From the NCBI GenBank assembly GCA_963830235.1, contig CAWHLR010000026.1, forward strand, positions 4,792 to 68,791: a stretch of 64,000 bases of DNA, in the 5' to 3' direction. Origin of the DNA: an uncultured Verrucomicrobiae bacterium (GTDB taxonomy: Bacteria > Verrucomicrobiota > Verrucomicrobiia > Limisphaerales > UBA11358). Position 1 is the stretch's first letter. Each line of letters begins with the position of its first letter. The notes under the pieces are model-generated. The model had not been told where the DNA came from. It saw only the letters and a list, made by a program, of their open reading frames with translations, and ran no database searches. The position numbers and the translations under genes were made by a program. Positions 5,588-52,978 of the stretch are shown piece after piece.

Positions 5588-8500
5588 TTATTCCTCGCCG
5601 TTGCCGGATTCGGCCTTGCGTTCCCAGCGGCGCGGCGCGCGTTCGGGCAGCGAGGTGTCGACCTTGGCGTAATATGTTTCCTCGCCAAAACGCGCGTCGG
5701 CTTCCTGCTGCAATTTCAACGACGGCATGACGCCGAAACGTTCGTTGGTGTCCATGAAGATGACTTCGCCGCCGGGACGCATGAAACACAGCAGCAACGG
5801 GCATTTGCCCGGATGCGCGGCCACGAGTTCGCGCACGGATTCCAGTTGTTCCGGTTTCAGGTGCGCGGTGTGCAGCCGCAAATGAACCTGTTTGGTGAAT
5901 TTTCTGGGCGCGTCCTCCAGCGGCAGGATTTCCTGCGGAAAAATCTTTGGGCGGTCGTCACCGGTGTTCACTTCGCCGATGACCAGGATGGCTTTGTTCG
6001 GCACGAGCAACGCGCGGTATTTGTCGTAGTTCTCGTTCATGCAAAGAATCTGCACGGAGCCTTCGAGGTCTTCGAGCGTGACCATGGAGTAAGGCTTTCC
6101 GCTTTTCTTTGACACGCCGTTTTGCACCGCCGCAATCAATCCGCCGATGGCCGTCTGGCTGCGATTCGGCAGCTCCGCGAGCTTGGCGGTGTTCGCCAGC
6201 GTGTATTTTTCCAAAATCGGCGCAAACGGCGTCAGCGGATGGCCGGTGACGTAAAAGCCGAGCAGCTCCTTTTCGTGTGCGAGCAACTCATGCTGCGGCC
6301 ATTCGGGCAGGTTGCTGATGGCGTCCGGCATGGGCGGCGCTTTTTCCTCCAGCGCGCCAAAGAGCGAGCTTTGTCCCTTCTGCCGGTCGGAAAGAATGCT
6401 CGCGGCGCGGGCCAGGGTGCGTTCGATTTGCGCGGACAACGTGGCACGCGTCTGGCCGAAGCCGTCGCACGCGCCGGTTTTGATGAGCGCCTCAAGTGTT
6501 TTCCGGTTCACCGTGCGGCCATCCGCGCGCTCGCACAGATCCGAAAGCGAGGTGAATTTTCCGCGTTCGTTCCGGGCTTTCAAAATGGATTCCACCGCGA
6601 CTTCGCCCACGCCCTTGATCGCGGCGAGGCCGAAGCGGATGGCCTTGCCGTCGCGCGCCGGGGCGAAGTGGACCAGGCTCTCGTTCACATCGGGGCCGAG
6701 GACCTCGATGCCGAACGCCCGCGCCTCGTTGATGTACTGGCTCAACTTGGCGGTATCCGCCATGTCGTTGGTCATCATCGCGCAGAAAAATTCGACGGGA
6801 TAATTGGCCTTCAGATAGGCGGTCTGATACGCGACGATGGCGTAGGCGGCGGCGTGCGATTTGTTGAAGCCATAGCCGGCGAACTTTTCCAGCAAATCGA
6901 AAATCTCGTTCGCCTTTTTTTCGGGGATCTGGTTTTTATCCCTGCAGCCCTTGACGAAAATGGCGCGTTGCTTGGCCATTTCCTCCAGCTTCTTTTTGCC
7001 CATGGCGCGCCGGAGCAAATCCGCGCTGCCAAGCGTGAACCCGGCCAGCAACTGGGCGGCCTGCATCACCTGTTCCTGGTAAATCAAAATGCCGTAGGTC
7101 TCGCGCGCAATCGGTTCGAGCAGCGGATGTTCGTATTTGATCTCGATTTCACCGTGGCGACGCTTGATAAATTCAGGAATCAGCTCCATCGGGCCGGGCC
7201 GGTAAAGCGCGACCAAGGCGGTGATGTGTTCAACGGAACTGATTTGAAACTTGCGGCACAAATCGCGCATTCCGCCGGATTCCAACTGGAACACGCCGAG
7301 TGTTTCCGCGCGGTTGAGCAGGTCGTAGGTCTTTTGGTCGTCGAGCGGCAGATGGTCAATCGGCACCTCGATGCCGTGCGTGCGCTTGACCATTTCGCAG
7401 GTGTTGCGGATGACGGTGAGCGTCTTCAGGCCGAGAAAATCCATCTTCAGCAGGCCCAGCTCGCCGACGGGATTCATCGCGTATTGCGTGACGAGCGTGC
7501 CGCTTTCGTCCTGCTTGAGCGGCAGCAAATTCACCAGCGGCTGATCGCCGATGACGACGCCGGCGGCGTGGACGGAGGCGTTGCGCGTGATGTCTTCCAG
7601 GATGAGCGCGGTGTCAATCAATTCGCGCGTGACCTCCTCGGTTTGGTAGGCCTCCTTGAATTCCGGCGACTGCTTGAGCGCCTTCGTCAAATCCATTTTC
7701 AGATCGAACGGAATCATCTTGGCCAGCCGATCGCACTCGCCGTAGCTCAGGCCCATCACGCGGCCCACATCGCGCACGACGGATTTCGCGCCCATCGTGC
7801 CGAACGTGATGATTTGCGCGACGGAATCGCGGCCGTATTTCTCGCGGACATACTCAATGACATCGGCGCGCCGGTCGTCCGCAAAATCAATGTCAATATC
7901 CGGCGGGTTGACGCGCTCGGGATTGAGGAAGCGCTCGAACAGCAGGCCGTAGCGGATCGGGTCCACGTTGGAAATTTCCAGCAGGTAGGTGACGATGGAA
8001 CCGGCGGCGGAACCGCGCGCCACACAAGCAATGCCGTGTTCGTGACCGTACCGGATGAAATCGCCAACAATGAGAAAGTAACTGATGAAACCTGTCTTTT
8101 CGATGACCTTAAGCTCCAGTTGCAGCCGATCCAAAACGGCCTTGATGGCGGCAGCGATGGCGGGGTCTTTTATGTCGTAGCAGCCGACGTGAGGAGGCTC
8201 ATTCTTTTTCTGCCCGGCATCTTCCGAATCTGATTTGAGCCTCGTTACCTCGGCTGCTACGGAAGCATCGAAAGTCGGCAATCGCGTTGGATCGTCAATT
8301 CCCTCGAACGACAAATTCCTTGCCCTCGGCTTTGGCGTGAAGCGTGTAGCGCCGGAGCAATCCTTCCGCAACCAACTTGCGCAAATAACCTTCGCGCGTG
8401 AAATGTTCCGGCGGCGCAAAGACCGGGAAGTGCAATTTGCTGAAATCGATTTCCAGGTTGCACTGCTCAGCGACGGCGAGCGTGTTTTTGACGGCCTCGG

Positions 8501-9287
8501 GCGTTTCGGCGAAGCGCGCCTTCATTTCCTCCGCCGTGCGCAGGTAAAACTGCTCCGGCTCGTAGCGCATCCGTTTCGTCTCGGCCAGTTGCGTCTGCGT
8601 GCCGATGCAAATCAGGCAATCATGCGCGTGCGAATGGCTTTTCTCGATATAATGAACGTCATTCGTTGCGATGAGTTTGAGGCCGAATTCCTTCGCCCAC
8701 AGGATCAAATGCTTGTTGACCTTGGCTTGTTCGGCGATGCCGTGGTTTTGCAGTTCGAGATAAAAATTGTCCGGGCCGAGCGTCTGCTTGAACCAATCCA
8801 CCGCGTCGCGCGCCTTGTCCAACTGGTCCTTGAGGATCCAATCCGGGATTTCGCTCGCAAGGCAGCCGGACATGGCGATCAGGCCTTCCTTGTGCGCGGC
8901 GAGGATTTCCTTGTCAATGCGCGGCTTGTAATAATAACCCTCCAGATGCGCGGCGGTGGTGAGCTTGATGAGGTTTTTGTAGCCGGTCTCGTCCTTGGCC
9001 AGCAAGCCGAGATGATGATAAACATCGCGTCCGCCGCTGCTGGTTTTCTTTTCCAGCCGGCTGCCGGGTGCAACATAAACTTCGCAGCCGATGATGGGTT
9101 TGATGCCCTTTTCGCGCGCCGCCTTGTAAAAATCAATGACGCCATGCATCGCGCCGTGGTCGGTGATGGCGAGCGCGGGGAATTTCAGTTCATGCGCCTT
9201 GTCCACCAGCCGGTCCAGACGGCAGGCGCCATCGAGCAATGAATACTCGGTGTGCAGATGCAAATGGACAAAATCGGCGTGCGACAT
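5588..9287 (-). CDS. dnaE: DNA polymerase III alpha subunit; the reading frame is broken by a one-nt shift near 8300 (true frameshift or sequence error)
   Basis: The N-terminal PHP-domain ORF 8295-9287 (HLHLHTEYSLLDG) is followed by the remainder in ORF 5588-8419 (FLIVGDFI, FERFLNPERVNPPDIDIDF). The two ORFs overlap in different frames. Confidence 0.9.
8177..8260. repeat. REPIN-like inverted doublet inside dnaE (in-frame, 84 nt)
   Basis: GTAGCAGCCGACGTGAGGAGGCTC (8177-8200) faces GAGCCTCGTTACCTCGGCTGCTAC (8237-8260). It belongs to the same family as the solo REP at 34677-34700. Confidence 0.75.
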
Positions 9288-28771: not shown

Positions 28772-28778
28772 AAAATTT

Positions 28779-29341
28779 GGAGGGCACTGCTTCGTCAGTG
28801 CCCCAACTAAATTAAATTGATGCGGGAATTGCAATCAAACGGAGAAATCGGGCGTAAACATCCCGTTCACCAGCCCGTTTTTCAACAGGGCAATCAAGCG
28901 GTTATTGTCTTTGTCACAGTCAATGCCCACCAACGAAAACCCATCCTTGCCAAAACAGATGTGGCAAACATTGTTCTCACCACGTGGGAGCAGGCTGACA
29001 CGTGGCTGGTTGGACGTTATGTCATCATGCCCGACCACATTCACTTTTTTTGCGCACCGCGTGATGTGTCGGTAAACTTGAAGCGTTGGATGAAGTTCTG
29101 GAAGAGCCAGGTTTCTTTGCGCTGGCCGCGATCCGCCGAACAGCCCGTCTGGCAGCTTGATTTTTGGGACACGCAATTGCGTCGCGGCGAGAGTTATTCG
29201 GAGAAATGGGATTATGTTTGTCGAAACCCCGTGCGAAAAGGCCTTGCGGCAAGGCCGAAAGATTGGCCTTATGCAGGCGAATTGAATGTCCTGTCCTGGC
29301 ACGACAAATGAAATTAGGGCACTGACGAAGCAGTGCCCTCC
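28779..29341 (+). mobile_element. RAYT-like unit: Y1/HUH transposase gene bracketed by perfect inverted hairpin REPs
   Basis: ggagggcactgcttcgtcagtgccc (28779-28803) and its exact reverse complement (29317-29341). Each is itself a hairpin (gggcactg/cagtgccc). Confidence 0.85.
28817..29311 (+). CDS. IS200/Y1-type (REP-associated-like) tyrosine transposase
   Basis: HUH motif MPDHIHFFCAP and Tyr motif WDYVCRNPVRKGL. About 160 aa. Confidence 0.75.
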   Translation: MMRELQSNGEIGRKHPVHQPVFQQGNQAVIVFVTVNAHQRKPILAKTDVANIVLTTWEQADTWLVGRYVIMPDHIHFFCAPRDVSVNLKRWMKFWKSQVSLRWPRSAEQPVWQLDFWDTQLRRGESYSEKWDYVCRNPVRKGLAARPKDWPYAGELNVLSWHDK

Positions 29342-29346
29342 AAAAT

Positions 29347-33651: not shown

Positions 33652-34164
33652 ATGGCGTTCGCGAAGAAAAAAATTGACCCGATTTCCGACCGTTCGCGCG
33701 CACTCAACGACCAGATTGCCGCCCTCGAAACCGAAATCAAAAAGCTCGACGCGCAGCTTCAGCGCGCGCCCGCTCCCAAATTTCGTTCCACCGCCATTCC
33801 ACACGCCGCGACCGTTGCCCGCGCACACGAGGCTCCGCCTCCAACACCGCCGGTGCAGGAGCCGGTTTTTGAAGAGATAAAACCATTGTCCGACACCGAG
33901 GAAATTGCCGCGCCCGAACAGTTCAACGATCTCGGCGTGCGCAAATACGATTTGCCCGCGCTGTTCCACCGCATCCGGACCCATTTCCGCCGGCCGACCA
34001 CGAACAATCCGCGGCTCGTCGCCTATCTGGCCGCCGGCGGCGTGCATGGCCTGCGCCCGATGCGCTACGAGAAACGCGTCGCGCGCAACCGCTTCATCTT
34101 TTTCGCCGCCGCGCTGTTTTTGTTGCTGCTTGGCCTGATCCTGATGTATGCCCACAACCATTAA
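33652..34164 (+). CDS. hypothetical protein with coiled-coil N-terminus and C-terminal TM anchor
   Basis: ORF with coding-like composition and the hydrophobic tail FIFFAAALFLLLLGLILMY. Confidence 0.55.
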   Translation: MAFAKKKIDPISDRSRALNDQIAALETEIKKLDAQLQRAPAPKFRSTAIPHAATVARAHEAPPPTPPVQEPVFEEIKPLSDTEEIAAPEQFNDLGVRKYDLPALFHRIRTHFRRPTTNNPRLVAYLAAGGVHGLRPMRYEKRVARNRFIFFAAALFLLLLGLILMYAHNH

Positions 34165-34174
34165 CCATCTGCGC

Positions 34175-34681
34175 ATGAAAACCCCATTCGTCGAACTGCC
34201 GGTTTCCACGCGTGACGGTCAATTCGTCGCCCGTTATTCGGAAAAAGGACTGGCGGAACTGGATTTCCCCGCCAGTGGCAGGGCGGGGCTGCCGCCCCGC
34301 CAGGACGCGCGGCAGCGCGTCCCTGCCAAAATATCCCGCTGGCATCGCGCAACCGCCGCCGCGTTGAAGGCGGTTCTCGCCGGGCGCGCGGCGAAAACAC
34401 TGCCGCCGCTCGATTGGTCCGGCAAAACGGAATTTCAGAAAAGCGTCTGGCGCGCGCTGCGCAAAATCCGCCGCGGCCAGACCAAAAGCTACGGCGAAAT
34501 TGCCCGTGCCATTGGCAAACCGAAGGCCGTTCGCGCCGTGGGCGGCGCATGCGGCGCGAATCCAATCCCGGTTTTAATTCCGTGTCACCGCGTGCTCGCC
34601 GCGAATGGAAAAATTGGCGGTTTCTCCGGCGGATTAAATCGGAAGCGCGAACTGCTCGCGCGCGAAGGGGTTTTCTTGTAG
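34175..34681 (+). CDS. ogt: methylated-DNA-protein-cysteine methyltransferase
   Basis: IPCHRV active-site motif and GEIARAIGKPKAVRAVGGACGANP. Confidence 0.9.
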   Translation: MKTPFVELPVSTRDGQFVARYSEKGLAELDFPASGRAGLPPRQDARQRVPAKISRWHRATAAALKAVLAGRAAKTLPPLDWSGKTEFQKSVWRALRKIRRGQTKSYGEIARAIGKPKAVRAVGGACGANPIPVLIPCHRVLAANGKIGGFSGGLNRKRELLAREGVFL

Positions 34682-34700
34682 CAGCCGACGTCAGTCGGCT
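34677..34700 (+). repeat. solo REP hairpin (GTAGCAGCCGAC family) overlapping the ogt stop codon
   Basis: GTAGCAGCCGACGTCAGTCGGCT has stem agccgac/gtcggct. The TAG of GTAG serves as the ogt stop codon. Confidence 0.75.
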
Positions 34701-34716
34701 CAAAAATCACGTGGTT

Positions 34717-40610: not shown

Positions 40611-40848
40611 TTTATTTCCTCATGGAATTCGTGGATGGCGTGAACCTGCGGCAATTGCTTCACGCCGGCCGCATCGCGCCGCGCGAGGCGCTGGCCATTG
40701 TGCCGCAAATTTGCGACGCGCTTCAGTTCGCGCATGATCAGGGCATCGTCCATCGCGACATCAAGCCGGAAAATATTTTGCTGGACTGCCGCGGCCGCGT
40801 GAAGGTGGCGGATTTTGGGCTGGCAAAACTGGTGGGGGTAGATGCGTT

Positions 40849-40909
40849 GGAGTTCCGCCTTCAGGCGGTTCCGACGCGACAAACCCGGACCGGCTGAAGC
40901 CGGAACTCC
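40849..40909. repeat. 61-nt palindromic element that disrupts the kinase frame
   Basis: ggagttccg-ccttcagg-cgg...ccggctgaagccggaactcc. The outer 9-bp arms are ggagttccg/cggaactcc, and there is an in-frame TGA inside. Confidence 0.85.
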
Positions 40910-42434
40910 AAACCCCCGCCTTGACCGCCGCCGGCAAGGTCATGGGCACGCCGAATTACATGGCGCCGGAACAGATGGAACATCCGGATGCCGTGGACAA
41001 TCGCGCGGACATTTACGCGCTGGGCGTGGTGTTTTACCAGATGCTCACCGGCGAACTGCCCGGCAAACAACTCCAGCCGCCGTCGTCGAAAGTTCAAATT
41101 GACGTGCGGCTGGATGAAGTCGTGCTGCGCGCGTTGGAAAAGAAACCTGAACTTCGCTACCAACAGGTCAGCGTGTTCAAGACGCAAATCGAAACGATCT
41201 CCCAAACTTCGCCGGCGGGAAATGCGCCGACAATTTCAGAAAAGCATCATCCAGCGCCCTGGAGCCAAGGGCTTGTTCTCGCGTCATTGTTGTGCATGGG
41301 TGCGTGCCTGTGGCCGGCGTTTGAGTTGTTCAAGCAGGGCGGCGGCTCCTCACTTCTGGTGGGATCGCTGTTGGTGGCGTTAACCATCGTGTGCGCTCTT
41401 TTTGCCATCCGTGGTTACACCATCACAGCCGATGCCATTCTCATTCACCGCTTGTTTTGGGCGACCCGACTGCCGCTCGCCGGACTGAAGTCTGCCCGTT
41501 TCGAAATAGCTGCCACGCGATGGGGCATTCGCGCCGGCAACGGCGGTTTCTTTTCCTGCACCGGATTCCGTTATAACCGACTGCTGGGTTTTCACCGTGT
41601 GTTTGTTACCGACGGAGCTCGAACCGTGGTGCTGCGCTACGCCAACCGCACCGTGGTCATTTCACCCGCCGACCCCGAAGCCTTTGTCCGCGACCTCGCC
41701 ATTCCAATGAAGGCAATGACGTGGGATGAGCAAGCACGCGTCAACGAAGCGGAGTGGCAAAACCCGGTCAATTGGACCGGACCGAAATGGCTGTCGGTTT
41801 ATTTCAGCAAACGCGATTCGCGCGCGTGGGTGCCGAAACAAATTCCCGCTTTGGGCTCGACGGTAAACCTGGGAAATCCGCAAGGCGCGTTCGCGCTGCT
41901 GGCCATCGTCAGCGCAATCATCATTGCCTTGGTTGTCCTGGCCGTTGTGCTGCTGGCGGTTTTCAAACCTGTCCACCCCAATTCGATCAGGTCGGATTAC
42001 ATCGGCCAAACCTGGTTTCCCAAAGGCGATTCCATTGAAATAACCTCGGTTGAGCGGACCGAGAAGCGGATGGTGGTCAAAGGCCATTACAATCTGGTAA
42101 GCCATGATCAGGCGACGCTGGCGCTTTACATCACTTCGACCAATAAAAATCTTCCAGAAGACAAGGAACAGCGGATGCAAATTTCCAAAGGACGCGGCGA
42201 TTTTGAATTGGTTCATTCCCATGTTATTCCCGGTCTTCCGCATGTGGTGATGGATGCCAACGGAGAAAATATTGCCAACCTGTATTTTGGAACCCAGGCC
42301 GAATCGCTGGAAGAAAGCAAGGCCAGTTGGAACTCGGGTGCCAACCAAATTGGTGAGGAGCCGGGCAAAATGGCGGCGCCCCTCAAATTCCCCCGCCGAT
42401 CAAAACCATTGTCCTGACGCGGGCGACGAATCAG

Positions 42435-49249: not shown

Positions 49250-49974
49250 TGGCTGAAGCGAGTTCATCACCGGAAAAAACGGGCCCGCCGGCCAGGAAAA
49301 GAAAATCCGGCGTGATTGTGCCGCACCAGGCGAAGTGGCATCAACGCATCGGCGCGTTTTTGGTGTTCATTTCGTTGCGCACGCTCATGGCCACAGTGCG
49401 CTGCCGTCTGCGCAACCCCTCGGAATTCCTGGCGCCCAACGCCCCCGGCCCGGTGATTGTTTGTTTCTGGCACAACCGGCTGGCGTCCTGCATCAAAGTT
49501 TATGAGAGCTTTCGCAAGCCGCACGCGTCCACCAGGGGCATGGCGGCGCTGATCAGCGCCAGCCGGGACGGCGCGTTTCTCACGGGCATTCTGGAATGGT
49601 TTGGCGTGCAGGCGGTGCGCGGATCCAGCAGCCGGCGCGGCCCGCAGGCGTTGCTCGAACTCACCACCTGGGCCGAGCGCAACTATGACCTGACCATCAC
49701 GCCGGACGGCCCGCGGGGGCCGTGCTACCAGTTTCAGGAGGGCGTGATGTCGCTGGCACAGGTAACGGGTTTGCCGGTGATGCCGATTGCGTTCAACGTG
49801 AATTGGAAACTGCGCGTGAAAAGCTGGGACCGGTTTCAGATTCCGCTGCCCTTTGCCTGTTGTGAAGTCGTCGTCGGCAAGGTCATGCGCGTGCCAGCCG
49901 AAGCCACGGACGCCGAACGCGAGTCGCTGCGTCAACAGCTTGAAGCCGACCTGCGCGCCATTTCCGGCGATTGA
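49249..49974 (+). CDS. DUF374-type lysophospholipid acyltransferase family protein
   Basis: CFWHNRL...ISASRDGAFLTGILEWFGVQAVRGSSSRRG...ITPDGPRGP. Confidence 0.7.
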   Translation: MAEASSSPEKTGPPARKRKSGVIVPHQAKWHQRIGAFLVFISLRTLMATVRCRLRNPSEFLAPNAPGPVIVCFWHNRLASCIKVYESFRKPHASTRGMAALISASRDGAFLTGILEWFGVQAVRGSSSRRGPQALLELTTWAERNYDLTITPDGPRGPCYQFQEGVMSLAQVTGLPVMPIAFNVNWKLRVKSWDRFQIPLPFACCEVVVGKVMRVPAEATDAERESLRQQLEADLRAISGD

Positions 49975-50001
49975 AATTCGGAGGGGCGTCACGGTTCTTG
50001 A

Positions 50002-50033
50002 CACTCAACTTCCAACCCTCAACCCTCAACTCC
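50002..50033. repeat. CTCAACC-type heptamer array just upstream of the priA start
   Basis: cactcaacttccaaccctcaaccctcaactcc, preceded by TTGACA at 49998-50003. Confidence 0.6.
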
Positions 50034-50035
50034 GC

Positions 50036-52978
50036 ATGATTGCCCGCGTCAGTCTTGAAATCGCGCTCCGCAAGGAGTTCGATTATTTGATTCCGCCCGG
50101 ATTGGCGGGGCAAATCGAGGTGGGCAGCCGCGTGCAGGTGCCGTTCGGCCCGCGAAAAATTTTAGGCTGCGTCACCGCGCTCGCCGAGGAATCGGCTCAC
50201 ACCAATCTCAAACCCATTTTGAAAGTCATCGGGGCGCAGACGCTTGTCACGCCGAAGGTTCTGAAGCTTGCGCGCTGGATTGCCGAGTACTACTGCTGCG
50301 CACCGGAAACCGCGTTGAAATCCGTCTTGCCCGAGGCCGTGCGCAAGGAGGAATCCGGCTGGCGCGAGCGGCTGTTTGTCCGCGCGCTGCCGGTGAGCGG
50401 CGAATTTCCGAAGCTGCCGAAACGCCAGCAGGAAGTCTGGAACATCATCGAGGAGCGACGCGAGCTGCCATTGTCGGAACTGGTCGAACTGGCCGAAACC
50501 ACCGCCGCCACCATCCGCAAACTCGAAGACCGCGGACTGCTTGAGGTCGCCCCGCAAATTTCCGAACGCGATCCGTACGCCCGCGAACACATCCTGCCGT
50601 CGCAACCGCTCCCGTTGAACCCGGCACAGGCTGCCGCGCTGGAGAAGATTGAGACGGCTATGAATGGCCGTTGTAGCACCCGCGTCCCGCGGGTGGAGGC
50701 GGGCGTCGCGCCCGCCTCTCGTCCGACAGTCAAGCCCGGCCCGATATGGGAAACCACCGCCCGCAAACGCAGCCTGCCGCATTTTGAAATTCCGGGTTTT
50801 ACCTATCACGTCACCTGGCAAACGCAGGACAAACTGATTCTTTCGCCCGAAGCCCGCGCAAAGACTTTGGAAGCCTGCCATTTCTGGCACGGGAACAAAA
50901 TCAAATGTTACGCCGCGTGTGTAATGCCCGACCATGTTCATTTGCTGATTCAACCTTTGCCGGTTCAGGAAGCCGGGAAAGAAGGCGTTCATCCGCTCTC
51001 GGAAATTCTTCACAGCATCAAATCATTTTCCGCCCATGAGGTGAACAAGGCCATGAAACGCAGCGGTCCGGTCTGGATGGATGAATCGTTTGACCGGATG
51101 ATCCGTTCGGAGGCCGACTTGCACAAGACGTGGGATTACATCTGGAACAATCCGCGCAGGATTGGATTGGTTGGACCAATGGAGGAATATCCTTACCTTT
51201 GGACGCCAACCGCACCCGACACACCCCAAGGTGTCCGGCGCGACGCCGGACACGACCCGCGGGACGCGGGTGCTACACCACAGACATCGGACGGCGCAAA
51301 GTCATCTCAAGTTTTCCTGCTTCATGGAGTGACCGGCAGCGGCAAAACCGAGGTTTATCTGCAAGCCCTCGCCCACGCGCTCGAACAGGGCAAGGGCGCC
51401 ATTGTGCTTGTGCCGGAGATTTCGCTCACGCCGCAGACCGTCGAGCGGTTTAAAGCACGTTTCAGCTCCGGCAAACTCCAGACGCTTGTTGCCGTGCTGC
51501 ACAGCCACCTGTCCGCCGGCGAACGTCACGATGAATGGCACAAAATCCGCCAGGGCCGCGCACGCATCGTCATCGGCGCGCGCTCGGCGATTTTTGCGCC
51601 GGTTGAACCGCTCGGCCTCATCATCGTGGACGAGGAACACGAGCACTCTTACAAGCAGGAGGAGGCGCCGCGCTACCACGCCCGCGACGTGGCCATCATG
51701 CGTGGCCAGATGGAAAACGCCGTCGTCGTGCTCGGTTCGGCCACGCCGTCGCTGGAAAGTTATTACAATTGCAAGAAGGGCAAATTCACGCTGCTCGAAC
51801 TGCCGGAGCGCGTGGACGACCAGAAAATGCCGCACGTCCGGGTCGTGGACATGCGGCAAGCCGCGTCCCAGCAGCGCGGAAAGGAAGGCATCCCGATTTT
51901 TTCGCCGCAACTCAAGGAAGCCATCACCCAGCGGCTCGAACGCGGCGAGCAGACGATTTTGTTTTTGAACCGGCGCGGTTATTCGACGTCGCTGCAATGC
52001 CCGAAGTGCGGCGAGGTTGTTCAGTGTCCGAATTGCAGCCTCGCGCTCACGTTTCACCGGCAGGAACAAAAGCTCGCCTGTCACATCTGCGGCCACGTCG
52101 CGCCCGTGCCGTCGGTTTGCCCAAATGCGAAATGCAAAAACCCGGCGATCCGTTTTGCCGGCACGGGCACGCAGCGGGTCGAGGAAACGCTTGCCAAGCT
52201 TTTCCCGCAGGCGCGCATCAAGCGCATGGACGCCGACACGATGAAACGCAAGGACGATTACCGGAAGGTGCTCGGCGATTTCCGCACGGGCAAAACCGAC
52301 ATCCTCGTCGGCACACAGATGATCGCCAAGGGGCTGCATTTCCCGAACGTCACGCTCGTCGGCATCATTTACGCCGACCTCGCGCTGCATCAGCCGGATT
52401 TTCGCGCGGGCGAACGGACCTTCCAACTGCTCACGCAAGTCGCCGGACGGGCCGGGCGCGGGGATGTCGAGGGCGAGGTGTTCGTGCAGGCATTCGCGCC
52501 ATTTCATCCGGCGATTCAATATGCGCGCCGCCACGACTTCACCGGCTTTTATGAACAGGAAATTGAATTCCGCGAGCAACTGAAATATCCGCCCGTCAGC
52601 CGCGTGGCGTTGCTCACGCTCAAGGGCCGCAACGAAGACAAGGTGAAATTTAGCGCCGAACACCTGAAACGGGAGCTGGAGAAAAATCTTGTGGCGGCGG
52701 TCTGTGACCGCCGCCAATCAGATGAAAAGAATGCAACTGCAAAAAACAAGGATAGTGCGGCGGTCACAGACCGCCGCTACAGCTTCGGTGATTTAATCAT
52801 CGCCGGTCCGGCGCCGGCGCCGTTGCTGCGCGCGGAAACTTTTTATCGGTACCAGATCATGCTGCGGACGCGCGCGATGAGCAAATTGAGCCAGGCCCTG
52901 GCAAAAATCATTGGGACGCTTGCCCTACCGGATGACGTGACCCTGGCGGTGGACATTGACCCGGTTAATTTGGGGTAG
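50036..52978 (+). CDS. priA: primosomal protein N' (replication restart helicase) carrying two in-frame insertions
   Basis: N-terminal ARVSLEIALRKEFDYLIP...VQVPFGPRKILG, Walker A HGVTGSGKTEVY, DEEH box IIVDEEHE, and the Cys cluster CPKCGEVVQCPNCSLALTFH...CHICGH. Confidence 0.9.
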   Translation: MIARVSLEIALRKEFDYLIPPGLAGQIEVGSRVQVPFGPRKILGCVTALAEESAHTNLKPILKVIGAQTLVTPKVLKLARWIAEYYCCAPETALKSVLPEAVRKEESGWRERLFVRALPVSGEFPKLPKRQQEVWNIIEERRELPLSELVELAETTAATIRKLEDRGLLEVAPQISERDPYAREHILPSQPLPLNPAQAAALEKIETAMNGRCSTRVPRVEAGVAPASRPTVKPGPIWETTARKRSLPHFEIPGFTYHVTWQTQDKLILSPEARAKTLEACHFWHGNKIKCYAACVMPDHVHLLIQPLPVQEAGKEGVHPLSEILHSIKSFSAHEVNKAMKRSGPVWMDESFDRMIRSEADLHKTWDYIWNNPRRIGLVGPMEEYPYLWTPTAPDTPQGVRRDAGHDPRDAGATPQTSDGAKSSQVFLLHGVTGSGKTEVYLQALAHALEQGKGAIVLVPEISLTPQTVERFKARFSSGKLQTLVAVLHSHLSAGERHDEWHKIRQGRARIVIGARSAIFAPVEPLGLIIVDEEHEHSYKQEEAPRYHARDVAIMRGQMENAVVVLGSATPSLESYYNCKKGKFTLLELPERVDDQKMPHVRVVDMRQAASQQRGKEGIPIFSPQLKEAITQRLERGEQTILFLNRRGYSTSLQCPKCGEVVQCPNCSLALTFHRQEQKLACHICGHVAPVPSVCPNAKCKNPAIRFAGTGTQRVEETLAKLFPQARIKRMDADTMKRKDDYRKVLGDFRTGKTDILVGTQMIAKGLHFPNVTLVGIIYADLALHQPDFRAGERTFQLLTQVAGRAGRGDVEGEVFVQAFAPFHPAIQYARRHDFTGFYEQEIEFREQLKYPPVSRVALLTLKGRNEDKVKFSAEHLKRELEKNLVAAVCDRRQSDEKNATAKNKDSAAVTDRRYSFGDLIIAGPAPAPLLRAETFYRYQIMLRTRAMSKLSQALAKIIGTLALPDDVTLAVDIDPVNLG
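50673..51276 (+). mobile_element. RAYT-like Y1/HUH transposase module with inverted GTAG-REP flanks, embedded in-frame in priA
   Basis: GTAGCACCCGCGTCCCGCGGGTG (50673-50695) faces ACCCGCGGGACGCGGGTGCTAC (51255-51276). Inner hairpins sit at 50696-50718 and 51231-51253. The segment encodes PDHVHLLIQP and WDYIWNNPRRIGL. Confidence 0.8.
52691..52780. repeat. REPIN doublet (GCGGCGGTC-TGT-GACCGCCGC family) in-frame inside priA (90 nt)
   Basis: GTGGCGGCGGTCTGTGACCGCCGCC faces GCGGCGGTCACAGACCGCCGCTAC. It is translated as VAAVCDRRQSDEKNATAKNKDSAAVTDRRYS. Confidence 0.85.

Follow-up and report, generated by a model that had tools for sequence, protein, structure and literature searches.

A head-to-head dimer of GTAG-tagged REPs lies in frame in the PHP-palm linker of a verrucomicrobial DnaE

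The 64,000-nucleotide stretch of contig CAWHLR010000026.1 analyzed here (hereafter the window) comes from a soil Verrucomicrobium whose gene for the replicative DNA polymerase, dnaE, carries an 84-nt palindromic element in the part that encodes a flexible linker. The element is a head-to-head heterodimer of two GTAG-tagged repetitive extragenic palindromic sequences (REPs) with their GTAG ends pointing outward, that is, it has the architecture of a REPIN (a REP doublet forming a hairpin). We read it as the tolerated, in-frame insertion of a REP heterodimer, mobilized by a REP-associated tyrosine transposase (RAYT), into the permissive linker between the PHP and palm domains, and place the probability of this reading at roughly 85%. 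According to this model, the 84 nt would be a non-autonomous mobile element composed of two GTAG-tagged REP hairpins, and a dedicated RAYT-like transposase of the HUH/Y1 type would move such dimers by cutting and pasting them in the form of single-stranded hairpins. The element would have landed in, or been inherited within, the one part of DnaE that tolerates changes in length, a surface linker; because its length is a multiple of three and its frame is free of stops, translation through it adds a low-complexity loop of 28 residues, which the polymerase survives. The insert would therefore be a tolerated, presumably neutral passenger rather than a functional part of DnaE. The coordinates of the element, of the open reading frames (ORFs) of dnaE and of the only other copy of the family in the window are collected in Table 1.

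Table 1. Position and content of the REP copies and dnaE features in the window
Feature	Position	Strand	Details
Rest of dnaE, other frame	5588..8305	-	linker, palm, fingers, HhH, OB
REP dimer, head-to-head, REPIN-like	8177..8260		84 nt; minus-strand translation gives 28 codons of DnaE
REP arm, type 'GACGTNAGGAG'	8177..8200	+	GTAGCAGCCGACGTGAGGAGGCTC; GTAG head at 8177; coding-strand reading EPPHVGCY
Spacer, 36 nt	8201..8236		coding strand KSDSEDAGQKKN
REP arm, type 'GAGGTNACGAG'	8237..8260	-	minus strand GTAGCAGCCGAGGTAACGAGGCTC; GTAG head at 8260; encodes VAAEVTRL
Premature TGA from the frame shift	8295..8297	-	terminates the N-terminal dnaE ORF
dnaE N-terminal ORF	8295..9287	-	PHP domain, 330 aa; end ...EGKEFVVRGN (stop)
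Extra C (G on the + strand)	8306	-	shifts the dnaE frame; minus strand gtcgttCgaggg
Solo REP, same family	34678..34701	+	GTAGCAGCCGACGTCAGTCGGCTC; 7-bp stem, 4-nt loop

An inverted doublet with 24-nt arms had been proposed in a sequence-only reading of the window, and these arms lie inside the 26-nt arms (8176-8201 and 8236-8261, 88% complementary, with 34 nt between them) that an inverted-repeat search delimits directly in the DNA. The structural features of a REPIN are present, namely two inverted REPs with arms of 24-26 nt, a spacer of 34-36 nt, and a single long hairpin as the minimum-free-energy fold. The 98 nt around the element fold with -24.9 kcal/mol as single-stranded DNA (z -5.98) and with -44.3 kcal/mol as RNA (z -5.81), values that no shuffled sequence equals. 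When the window was searched for the 24-mer GTAGCAGCCGACGTGAGGAGGCTC with at most 3 mismatches, three sites were returned (8177+, 8237- and 34678+) against 0.00 expected from 100 shuffles, so that the family is represented by three copies in the 64 kb. A chance palindrome is ruled out by the complementarity, the shuffle counts and the fold z-scores. All three copies begin with GTAG, the GT[A/G]G tag of GTAG-type REPs, and each of the dnaE arms contains a 4-5 bp stem of its own, (G)AGNC/GNCT(C), around a 10-nt loop, while the spacer is similar to those in other dimers of the same REP family (GGCTCAAATCA...). The third copy stands alone and has the layout GTAGC-AGCCGAC-GTCA-GTCGGCT-C, with the stem AGCCGAC/GTCGGCT; the TAG in its GTAG head (34679-34681) is the stop codon of an ogt-like ORF (34148..34681) with the Ogt active-site motif PCHRV. 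Both arms had been said to match this solo REP, and the copy at the ogt stop codon is indeed real, although the arms are identical to it at only 21/24 and 19/24 positions, which makes the word slightly generous. The use of a REP head as stop codon recurs elsewhere: that of the ogt-like gene is also kept in a syntenic locus (L106, 86% identity), and RAYT-like genes in two further loci (L207 and L208) likewise end on the TAG of a flanking REP head.

On the minus strand the region is translated as ...TFDAS VAAEVTRLKSDSEDAGQKKNEPPHVGCY DIKDPAIAAAIK..., in which the 84 nt encode VAAEVTRLKSDSEDAGQKKNEPPHVGCY without any stop codon. The insert maps between residues ~306 and ~324 of the E. coli Pol III alpha subunit, which corresponds to the PHP-palm junction, and falls within the variable segment ~320-385 of Thermus aquaticus DnaE. 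In an alignment with 69 relatives, the insert site is the only long region of variable length in the first 655 residues of DnaE, in agreement with the sequence-only reading, which had put the repeat in frame in the variable linker that joins the PHP domain to the polymerase core. For the structure we relied on an AlphaFold model of P0001, the closest DnaE protein that has the same insert, 90% identical to the 462-aa window query (P and L numbers are our labels for protein matches and DNA loci). The predicted local distance difference test score (pLDDT) is ~59, 50 and 49 across the insert, with flanking blocks at 85 and 87; since the model as a whole is moderate (mean pLDDT 71), it supports no more than a low-confidence loop between confident segments, a pattern consistent with a surface loop.

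If the 28 residues had instead been selected in DnaE as protein, as a linker or as an interaction motif, with the DNA symmetry being incidental, this would account for the recurrence of VAAEV.RL...EPPHVG.Y in several DnaE relatives and for the short helix modelled at the N-terminal part of the insert. However, the conservation described below reaches synonymous sites, the confidence of the model is low across the insert, the peptide is absent or replaced in most relatives (the nearest ones included), and the same DNA is found in several frames in unrelated proteins as well as in intergenic DNA. In the alignment of DnaE orthologues, wherever a relative has retained the peptide the DNA symmetry is retained as well; in L128 the symmetry has decayed and the peptide with it, and many relatives lack the peptide altogether. 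We therefore consider a protein-level origin of the symmetry very unlikely and already largely refuted.

The dnaE gene of the window is split between two frames, and the cause of the break can be read directly from the alignment. The repeat, with 28 codons and no stop, leaves the frame intact, as had been anticipated; the break is separate from it and is due to an independent 1-nt insertion. Its distance from the doublet, previously given as about 40 nt, measures 46 nt from the element edge to the extra C and 35 nt from the element to the TGA. Whereas the minus strand of the window reads GTCGTT-C-GAGGGAATTGAC, the 16 relatives aligned at the site have GTCGTT-GAGGGAATTGA (EFVVEGIDDP), and dropping one C from the window brings back this conserved motif; the linker is 316 nt long in the window versus 315 nt in L121, which contains the same element. 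The shift is present in 0/62 short-read loci with a recovered linker, all of which are in frame. In the window's nearest related contig (L120, ENA contig_87694), dnaE is divided into three called ORFs and a frame error lies inside its own repeat insert, which suggests that the sample set includes error-prone long-read assemblies. Given the short-read relatives without the shift, the split dnaE of L120 and a second split gene in the window, the extra C most probably stems from an indel error made in sequencing or assembly, or else from a mutation that arose very recently. The second split gene is that of a Ser/Thr kinase, with part of the Pkinase profile in one frame and the rest in another. 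It carries a 65-nt palindromic insert between DFG and APE (40847-40911; 23-nt arms, 91% complementary; peptides EFRLQAVP and DRLKPELQ), and because 65 is not a multiple of three the frame changes inside the insert; either the insertion has inactivated the gene or the repeat contains an indel error. Both of the frame breaks found in the window are thus located at or near palindromic inserts.

The proximity of hairpin and break could also be taken as a programmed ribosomal frameshift, or some other recoding site controlling DnaE synthesis. The in-frame TGA is indeed followed, 35 nt further downstream, by a very stable RNA hairpin; AAU UGA C has a Shine-Dalgarno-like GAGGG in front of it, an arrangement that faintly recalls the +1 site of prfB; and the kinase break offers a second case in a palindromic insert. 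Nonetheless, the short-read relatives without the shift include L121, whose element is the same, and a single C suffices to restore the conserved motif. No slippery sequence (slippery heptamer) is present at the site, and a hairpin at 35-46 nt is too distant, as the stimulatory structures of programmed frameshifts are typically spaced by 5-9 nt. Moreover, frameshifts abound in the nearest contig too, which is common in long-read assemblies. Recoding at this site is accordingly very hard to sustain.

The family to which the arms belong is common and widespread in Verrucomicrobiota, in the Limisphaerales/Pedosphaera group. Among GTDB species-representative genomes, at least 119 stretches contain the exact 24-mer of the solo copy; almost all of these bear the labels Verrucomicrobiota, Verrucomicrobiae, Limisphaerales or subdivision 3, and peat or bog is the sample source of many. 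The 815 kb of these loci contain 268 family heads, including the dnaE subtypes GACGT.AGGAG and GAGGT.ACGAG, as well as 45 head-to-head dimers with GTAG outward, often built from two different arm subtypes. The element proves to be a REP doublet, as the sequence-only reading had supposed, with its heads outward and belonging to a real dispersed family. Head-to-head is the commonest adjacency (46/78 close pairs), and the spacers share end motifs within dimers of 65 to 125 nt, a range that includes the 84 nt seen in dnaE. The dimers are flanked as YY-GTAG...CTAC-RR, with a pyrimidine at -1 in 40/45, and no target-site duplication was seen at any of the 45. Dimer length is a multiple of three in 13/45, meaning that there is no such preference, which fits the survival in genes of only those copies that happen to be in frame. 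About a fifth of the sampled heads (54/268, in a biased sample and with crude ORF calls) lie inside long ORFs with high third-codon GC content. Members of the family are found in frame in many genes (the dimers in replication and repair genes being of this and related families), for example those of UvrA (L099), DNA polymerase I (L049), AroA (L013), an AcrB-like pump (L012), ArgJ (L112) and RecF (L015 and L094), and the copies in genes are read in several frames (VAADVSRL, SRLTSAAT, EPTDVGCY). The recF insert occupies the same site in two different genomes, which indicates that such inserts can be inherited. Some loci additionally contain direct tandem arrays of the same REP, unlike the head-to-head dimers: six copies with a 40-nt period in L063 (951-1174), three copies with a 111-nt period in L020 (2557-2802), and long same-strand clusters in L026 (3187-7166).

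To look for a transposase we used a tblastn probe, an E. coli RayT sequence that served as a lead only, and re-tested all matches with NCBIfam or Pfam. The probe pointed to HUH/Y1-like ORFs in three loci (L026, L037 and L093) and to two in the window. The proteins of L037 and L093 match the NCBIfam family NF047646, 'REP-associated tyrosine transposase', with 44 bits and an E value of 1e-11 (cutoff 80), and belong to a clade with at least 1445 homologues, many of which have been named 'REP element-mobilizing transposase RayT' by JGI. Both genes have the REP family of the dnaE arms on either side. In 5/5 further loci (L204-L208) the gene is located between arrays in which two REP types alternate, GTAGGAGnCGACGTnAGGAGnCTC and, on the opposite strand, GTAGGAGnCGAGGTnACGAGnCTC; the two types pair as head-to-head dimers of 72-90 nt. 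In these relatives, the RAYT-like gene is thus bracketed by REPs of the dnaE-arm family in 7/7 loci examined. The arm types of the dnaE dimer are exactly the two that bracket the RAYT-like gene: that of 8177-8200 is the first type, which brackets the genes in L204-L208, and that of 8237-8260 is the second, which adjoins them in L093 and L205-L208. This makes the dnaE insert a canonical heterodimer of the same REP/RAYT-like system.

The two RAYT sequences of the window itself were considered as mobilizers and rejected, since each is bracketed by unrelated inverted repeats. One of them (ORF 28817..29311) is a bona fide RAYT gene, with 99 bits against NF047646 (cutoff 80), and stands between 38-nt inverted repeats (28776-28813 and 29307-29344) of another family (GGGCACTG....CAGTGCCC; peptide 'EGTASSVP'). 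Repeats of this other family are also present in the DnaE linker of other lineages (P0063 and P0117). The second RAYT sequence lies inside priA and is described further below.

Comparison of the protein matches and of 64 orthologous DNA loci revealed that the stretch of DnaE between LPT[YF] and DPAVAAAIK is hypervariable. The 84-nt element is common to the window, L121, L201 and P0001; a 72-nt variant (VGDDVRSL...EPPHVGSY) is present in seven loci (L122, L124, L125, L128, L136, L202 and L203), and a GTGG-headed variant in three (L123, L126 and L127). The frame is open through the element in 10 relatives. At least eight other, unrelated families of palindromic or tandem repeats occupy the linker in Limisphaerales-like relatives, among them GTAGGACAGGCG... 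(VGQASRLS...DACPT), CCCCTCACCCCGGCCCTCTCCC..., GTGGCACGGGCG... and GTCGAGAGACGAGAG.../CTCGACCCTCGAC, and some lineages have no insert (L141, L153, L162 and L135). In L135 the linker (GSASGTLKDP) resembles what a deletion would leave of the 'RRDAGATLKDP' type found in L131. Inverted repeats with a score of 12 or more are found in 17/64 linkers, while control windows in the flanking dnaE average 7.2, with a maximum of 13.

As expected of a mobile REPIN, the element is present at some orthologous linkers and absent from others, and its distribution conflicts with the tree of the flanking genes. The nearest relatives, L120 (92.4% identity over 3.8 kb) and L130 (92.0% over 1.5 kb), both carry a GTCGAGAG-type element, whereas L121, which shares the element of the window, is only ~85% identical to it; the close sisters L134, L124 and L141 exhibit three different insert states. 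This distribution off the gene tree, with differing occupants in close lineages, indicates that the site turns over quickly, whether by repeated insertion, replacement, loss or recombination, routes that the data cannot tell apart. A repeat wrongly joined into dnaE during assembly would be another way to place it in the linker, as repeats can cause misassembly and the window has two frame breaks. This we regard as exceedingly improbable: the same element occurs at the same codon position in three independent assemblies (L121, L201 and P0001) and its 72-nt variant in seven more, and the flanks are continuous dnaE.

A more serious alternative concerns the arms themselves. Across 10 dnaE copies from as many lineages, third-codon identity is 86% in the arms versus 60% in the flanking dnaE; over all its positions, the spacer is 63% identical. 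The 5-bp stems within the arms are 95% paired, and one of the pairs covaries, being AU in 6 lineages and CG in 4 and never unpaired; the within-arm covariation score is 0.18, compared with 0.04 for shuffled alignments (reached in 1/500 shuffles). The helix between the two arms is 85% paired, its mismatches fall exactly at the positions that covary within the arms, and no excess of covariation was seen in it among the 10 dnaE copies. Covariation within the arms without an excess between them suggests that the conserved unit is the single REP hairpin and that conservation acts at the level of the DNA rather than of the protein. As the sample is small and the sequences are related, the constraint is suggestive only; selection could account for the conservation of the arms, and so could gene conversion by other copies or the new insertion of variants of the family.

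Such a pattern is what would be expected if the element had been co-opted, with its arms kept by selection on DNA or RNA because the hairpin is useful to dnaE or to the cell, for example as an mRNA structure tuning the translation or stability of DnaE, or by binding a RAYT or a nucleoid protein. The high identity of the arms at third codon positions while the spacer drifts at a near-neutral rate, the covarying stems and the strength of the hairpin all speak for it. Against this, the closest relatives (L120 and L130) carry an unrelated element at the site and others have no insert, the same family is found in dozens of unrelated genes and intergenic sites, and gene conversion or repeated fresh insertion explains the conserved arms equally well. 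In addition, no Rfam family matched the element (the best hit, a microRNA precursor, reached 25 bits against a gathering score of 90, a sub-threshold match typical of any long hairpin), and no terminator-like site was found there. We consequently judge co-option improbable.

It is also conceivable, though doubtful, that the DnaE linker is an actively targeted landing pad, in which hairpin-forming REPs or REPINs of at least eight families insert preferentially into or next to the resident palindrome, or into exposed single-stranded DNA, and replace one another in situ. Replacement would then proceed on short timescales (two occupants within lineages that are ~92% identical), and the arms would be kept by selection on the DNA or by gene conversion. 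If true, an essential replication gene would act as a natural recorder of REPIN-RAYT activity, hinting at a link between RAYTs and replication genes. Beside this possibility stands another observation from the window. A complete REP-RAYT-REP unit of 606 nt or 202 codons (50672-51277) lies in frame within the ORF of the PriA helicase (49853-52978, plus strand, 1041 aa), which stays open from end to end. GTAG-headed inverted repeats of 41 nt (50672-50712 and 51237-51277, 90% complementary) form the borders of the unit, which includes a Y1_Tnp domain (Pfam PF01797, 26.8 bits; HUH motif 'MPDHVHLL', and 'YIWNNP') between the 3'-DNA-binding domain and the DEAD helicase domain of PriA. It is unusual for a replication-restart helicase to harbor a transposase gene within its reading frame.

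Several points weigh against the reading of the dnaE element as a tolerated, RAYT-mobilized insertion. A pure passenger should decay, so that the conserved arms call for constraint on the DNA, gene conversion or repeated fresh insertion. Within the 64-kb window there is no RAYT of the matching clade, and mobilization in the source genome is suggested by the relatives; the RAYT-like proteins of L037 and L093, besides scoring below the NF047646 cutoff, have no Pfam match. The census loci were chosen because they contain the 24-mer, which biases the counts. Finally, both a single origin of the dnaE insert and repeated insertion fit the data, and the window copy may be inherited or new: the near-neutral divergence of the spacer favors inheritance, and the conflict with the gene tree favors turnover or recombination. 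The repeat, its family, its in-frame position, the bracketing of RAYT-like genes by both arm types in relatives, the polymorphism of the insertion at the linker and the cause of the frame break are direct observations; transposition by the RAYT, the neutrality of the insert and the origin of the indel in an error are inferences.

For annotation, these results mean that the 28 residues should be regarded as repeat-derived and not as a DnaE motif, and that the reads should be checked before the split dnaE is classed as a pseudogene. With respect to mobile elements, they describe a well-defined REP/RAYT-like system in an under-studied phylum, in which two complementary REP types pair as heterodimers. 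The permissive loop of DnaE is also a convenient natural system for dating insertions, for measuring turnover and for asking why the arms stay intact at synonymous sites.

Among known systems, the element resembles the Rickettsia palindromic elements (RPEs), in that a palindrome lies in frame in essential genes, is translated and is tolerated in surface loops. RPEs, however, occur in Alphaproteobacteria and are CGTC-tagged (or of the RPE-1 type) or longer, unrelated sequences, while the tag here is GTAG, so that the window element is an analogue and not a member of that group. To our knowledge, no dedicated RAYT exists for RPEs. The model of mobility that we adopt comes from REPIN-RAYT systems (Bertels & Rainey 2011, PMC3116915; Nunvar et al. 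2010, PMC2817692), with which the element shares inverted REPs that form a long hairpin together with their spacer, dispersed copies and, in its relatives, a family-specific RAYT flanked by the same REPs. It departs from the classical systems in its divergent RAYT-like clade (44 bits against NF047646, where 80 are required, and no Pfam match), in the variable length of its dimers (65-125 nt), and in location, since classical REPINs are extragenic and about a fifth of the copies sampled here lie in long ORFs.

The closest precedent is that of the GTAG-tagged REPs, defined by Di Nocera, De Gregorio & Rocco 2013 (BMC Genomics 14:522; PMC3733652) together with their head-to-head dimers with GTAG outside. 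These elements were described in the PVC superphylum, the verrucomicrobium Opitutus terrae being the richest in intragenic copies, and the dimers located inside genes contribute 20-30 aa to the protein and are concentrated in genes for replication and repair (uvrA, polA and dnaE2); an RPE in dnaE of R. conorii is also cited there. Intragenic GTAG-REP dimers in replication and repair genes have thus already been described, a precedent that, like the RAYT association and the turnover at the site, lay beyond the sight of the sequence-only reading. The window element shares with the published dimers the GTAG tag, the short stem-loop, the head-to-head arrangement, a spacer in the 20-100 bp range and the frequent pairing of unlike REPs, and its palindromes are of the GTAG type (stem of 5-13 bp, loop of 2-20 nt), with a 7-bp stem and 4-nt loop in the solo copy and 4-5 bp stems and 10-nt loops in the arms. 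It differs in belonging to another REP sequence family and to another order, in the Limisphaerales/Pedosphaera group. Moreover, PMC3733652 does not describe many unrelated repeat families successively occupying one homologous site. Here, one homologous loop of an essential gene has been occupied in turn by many repeat families, its occupant differs between lineages that are ~92% identical, and the arms of the element are conserved at synonymous sites, observations that go beyond the published picture.

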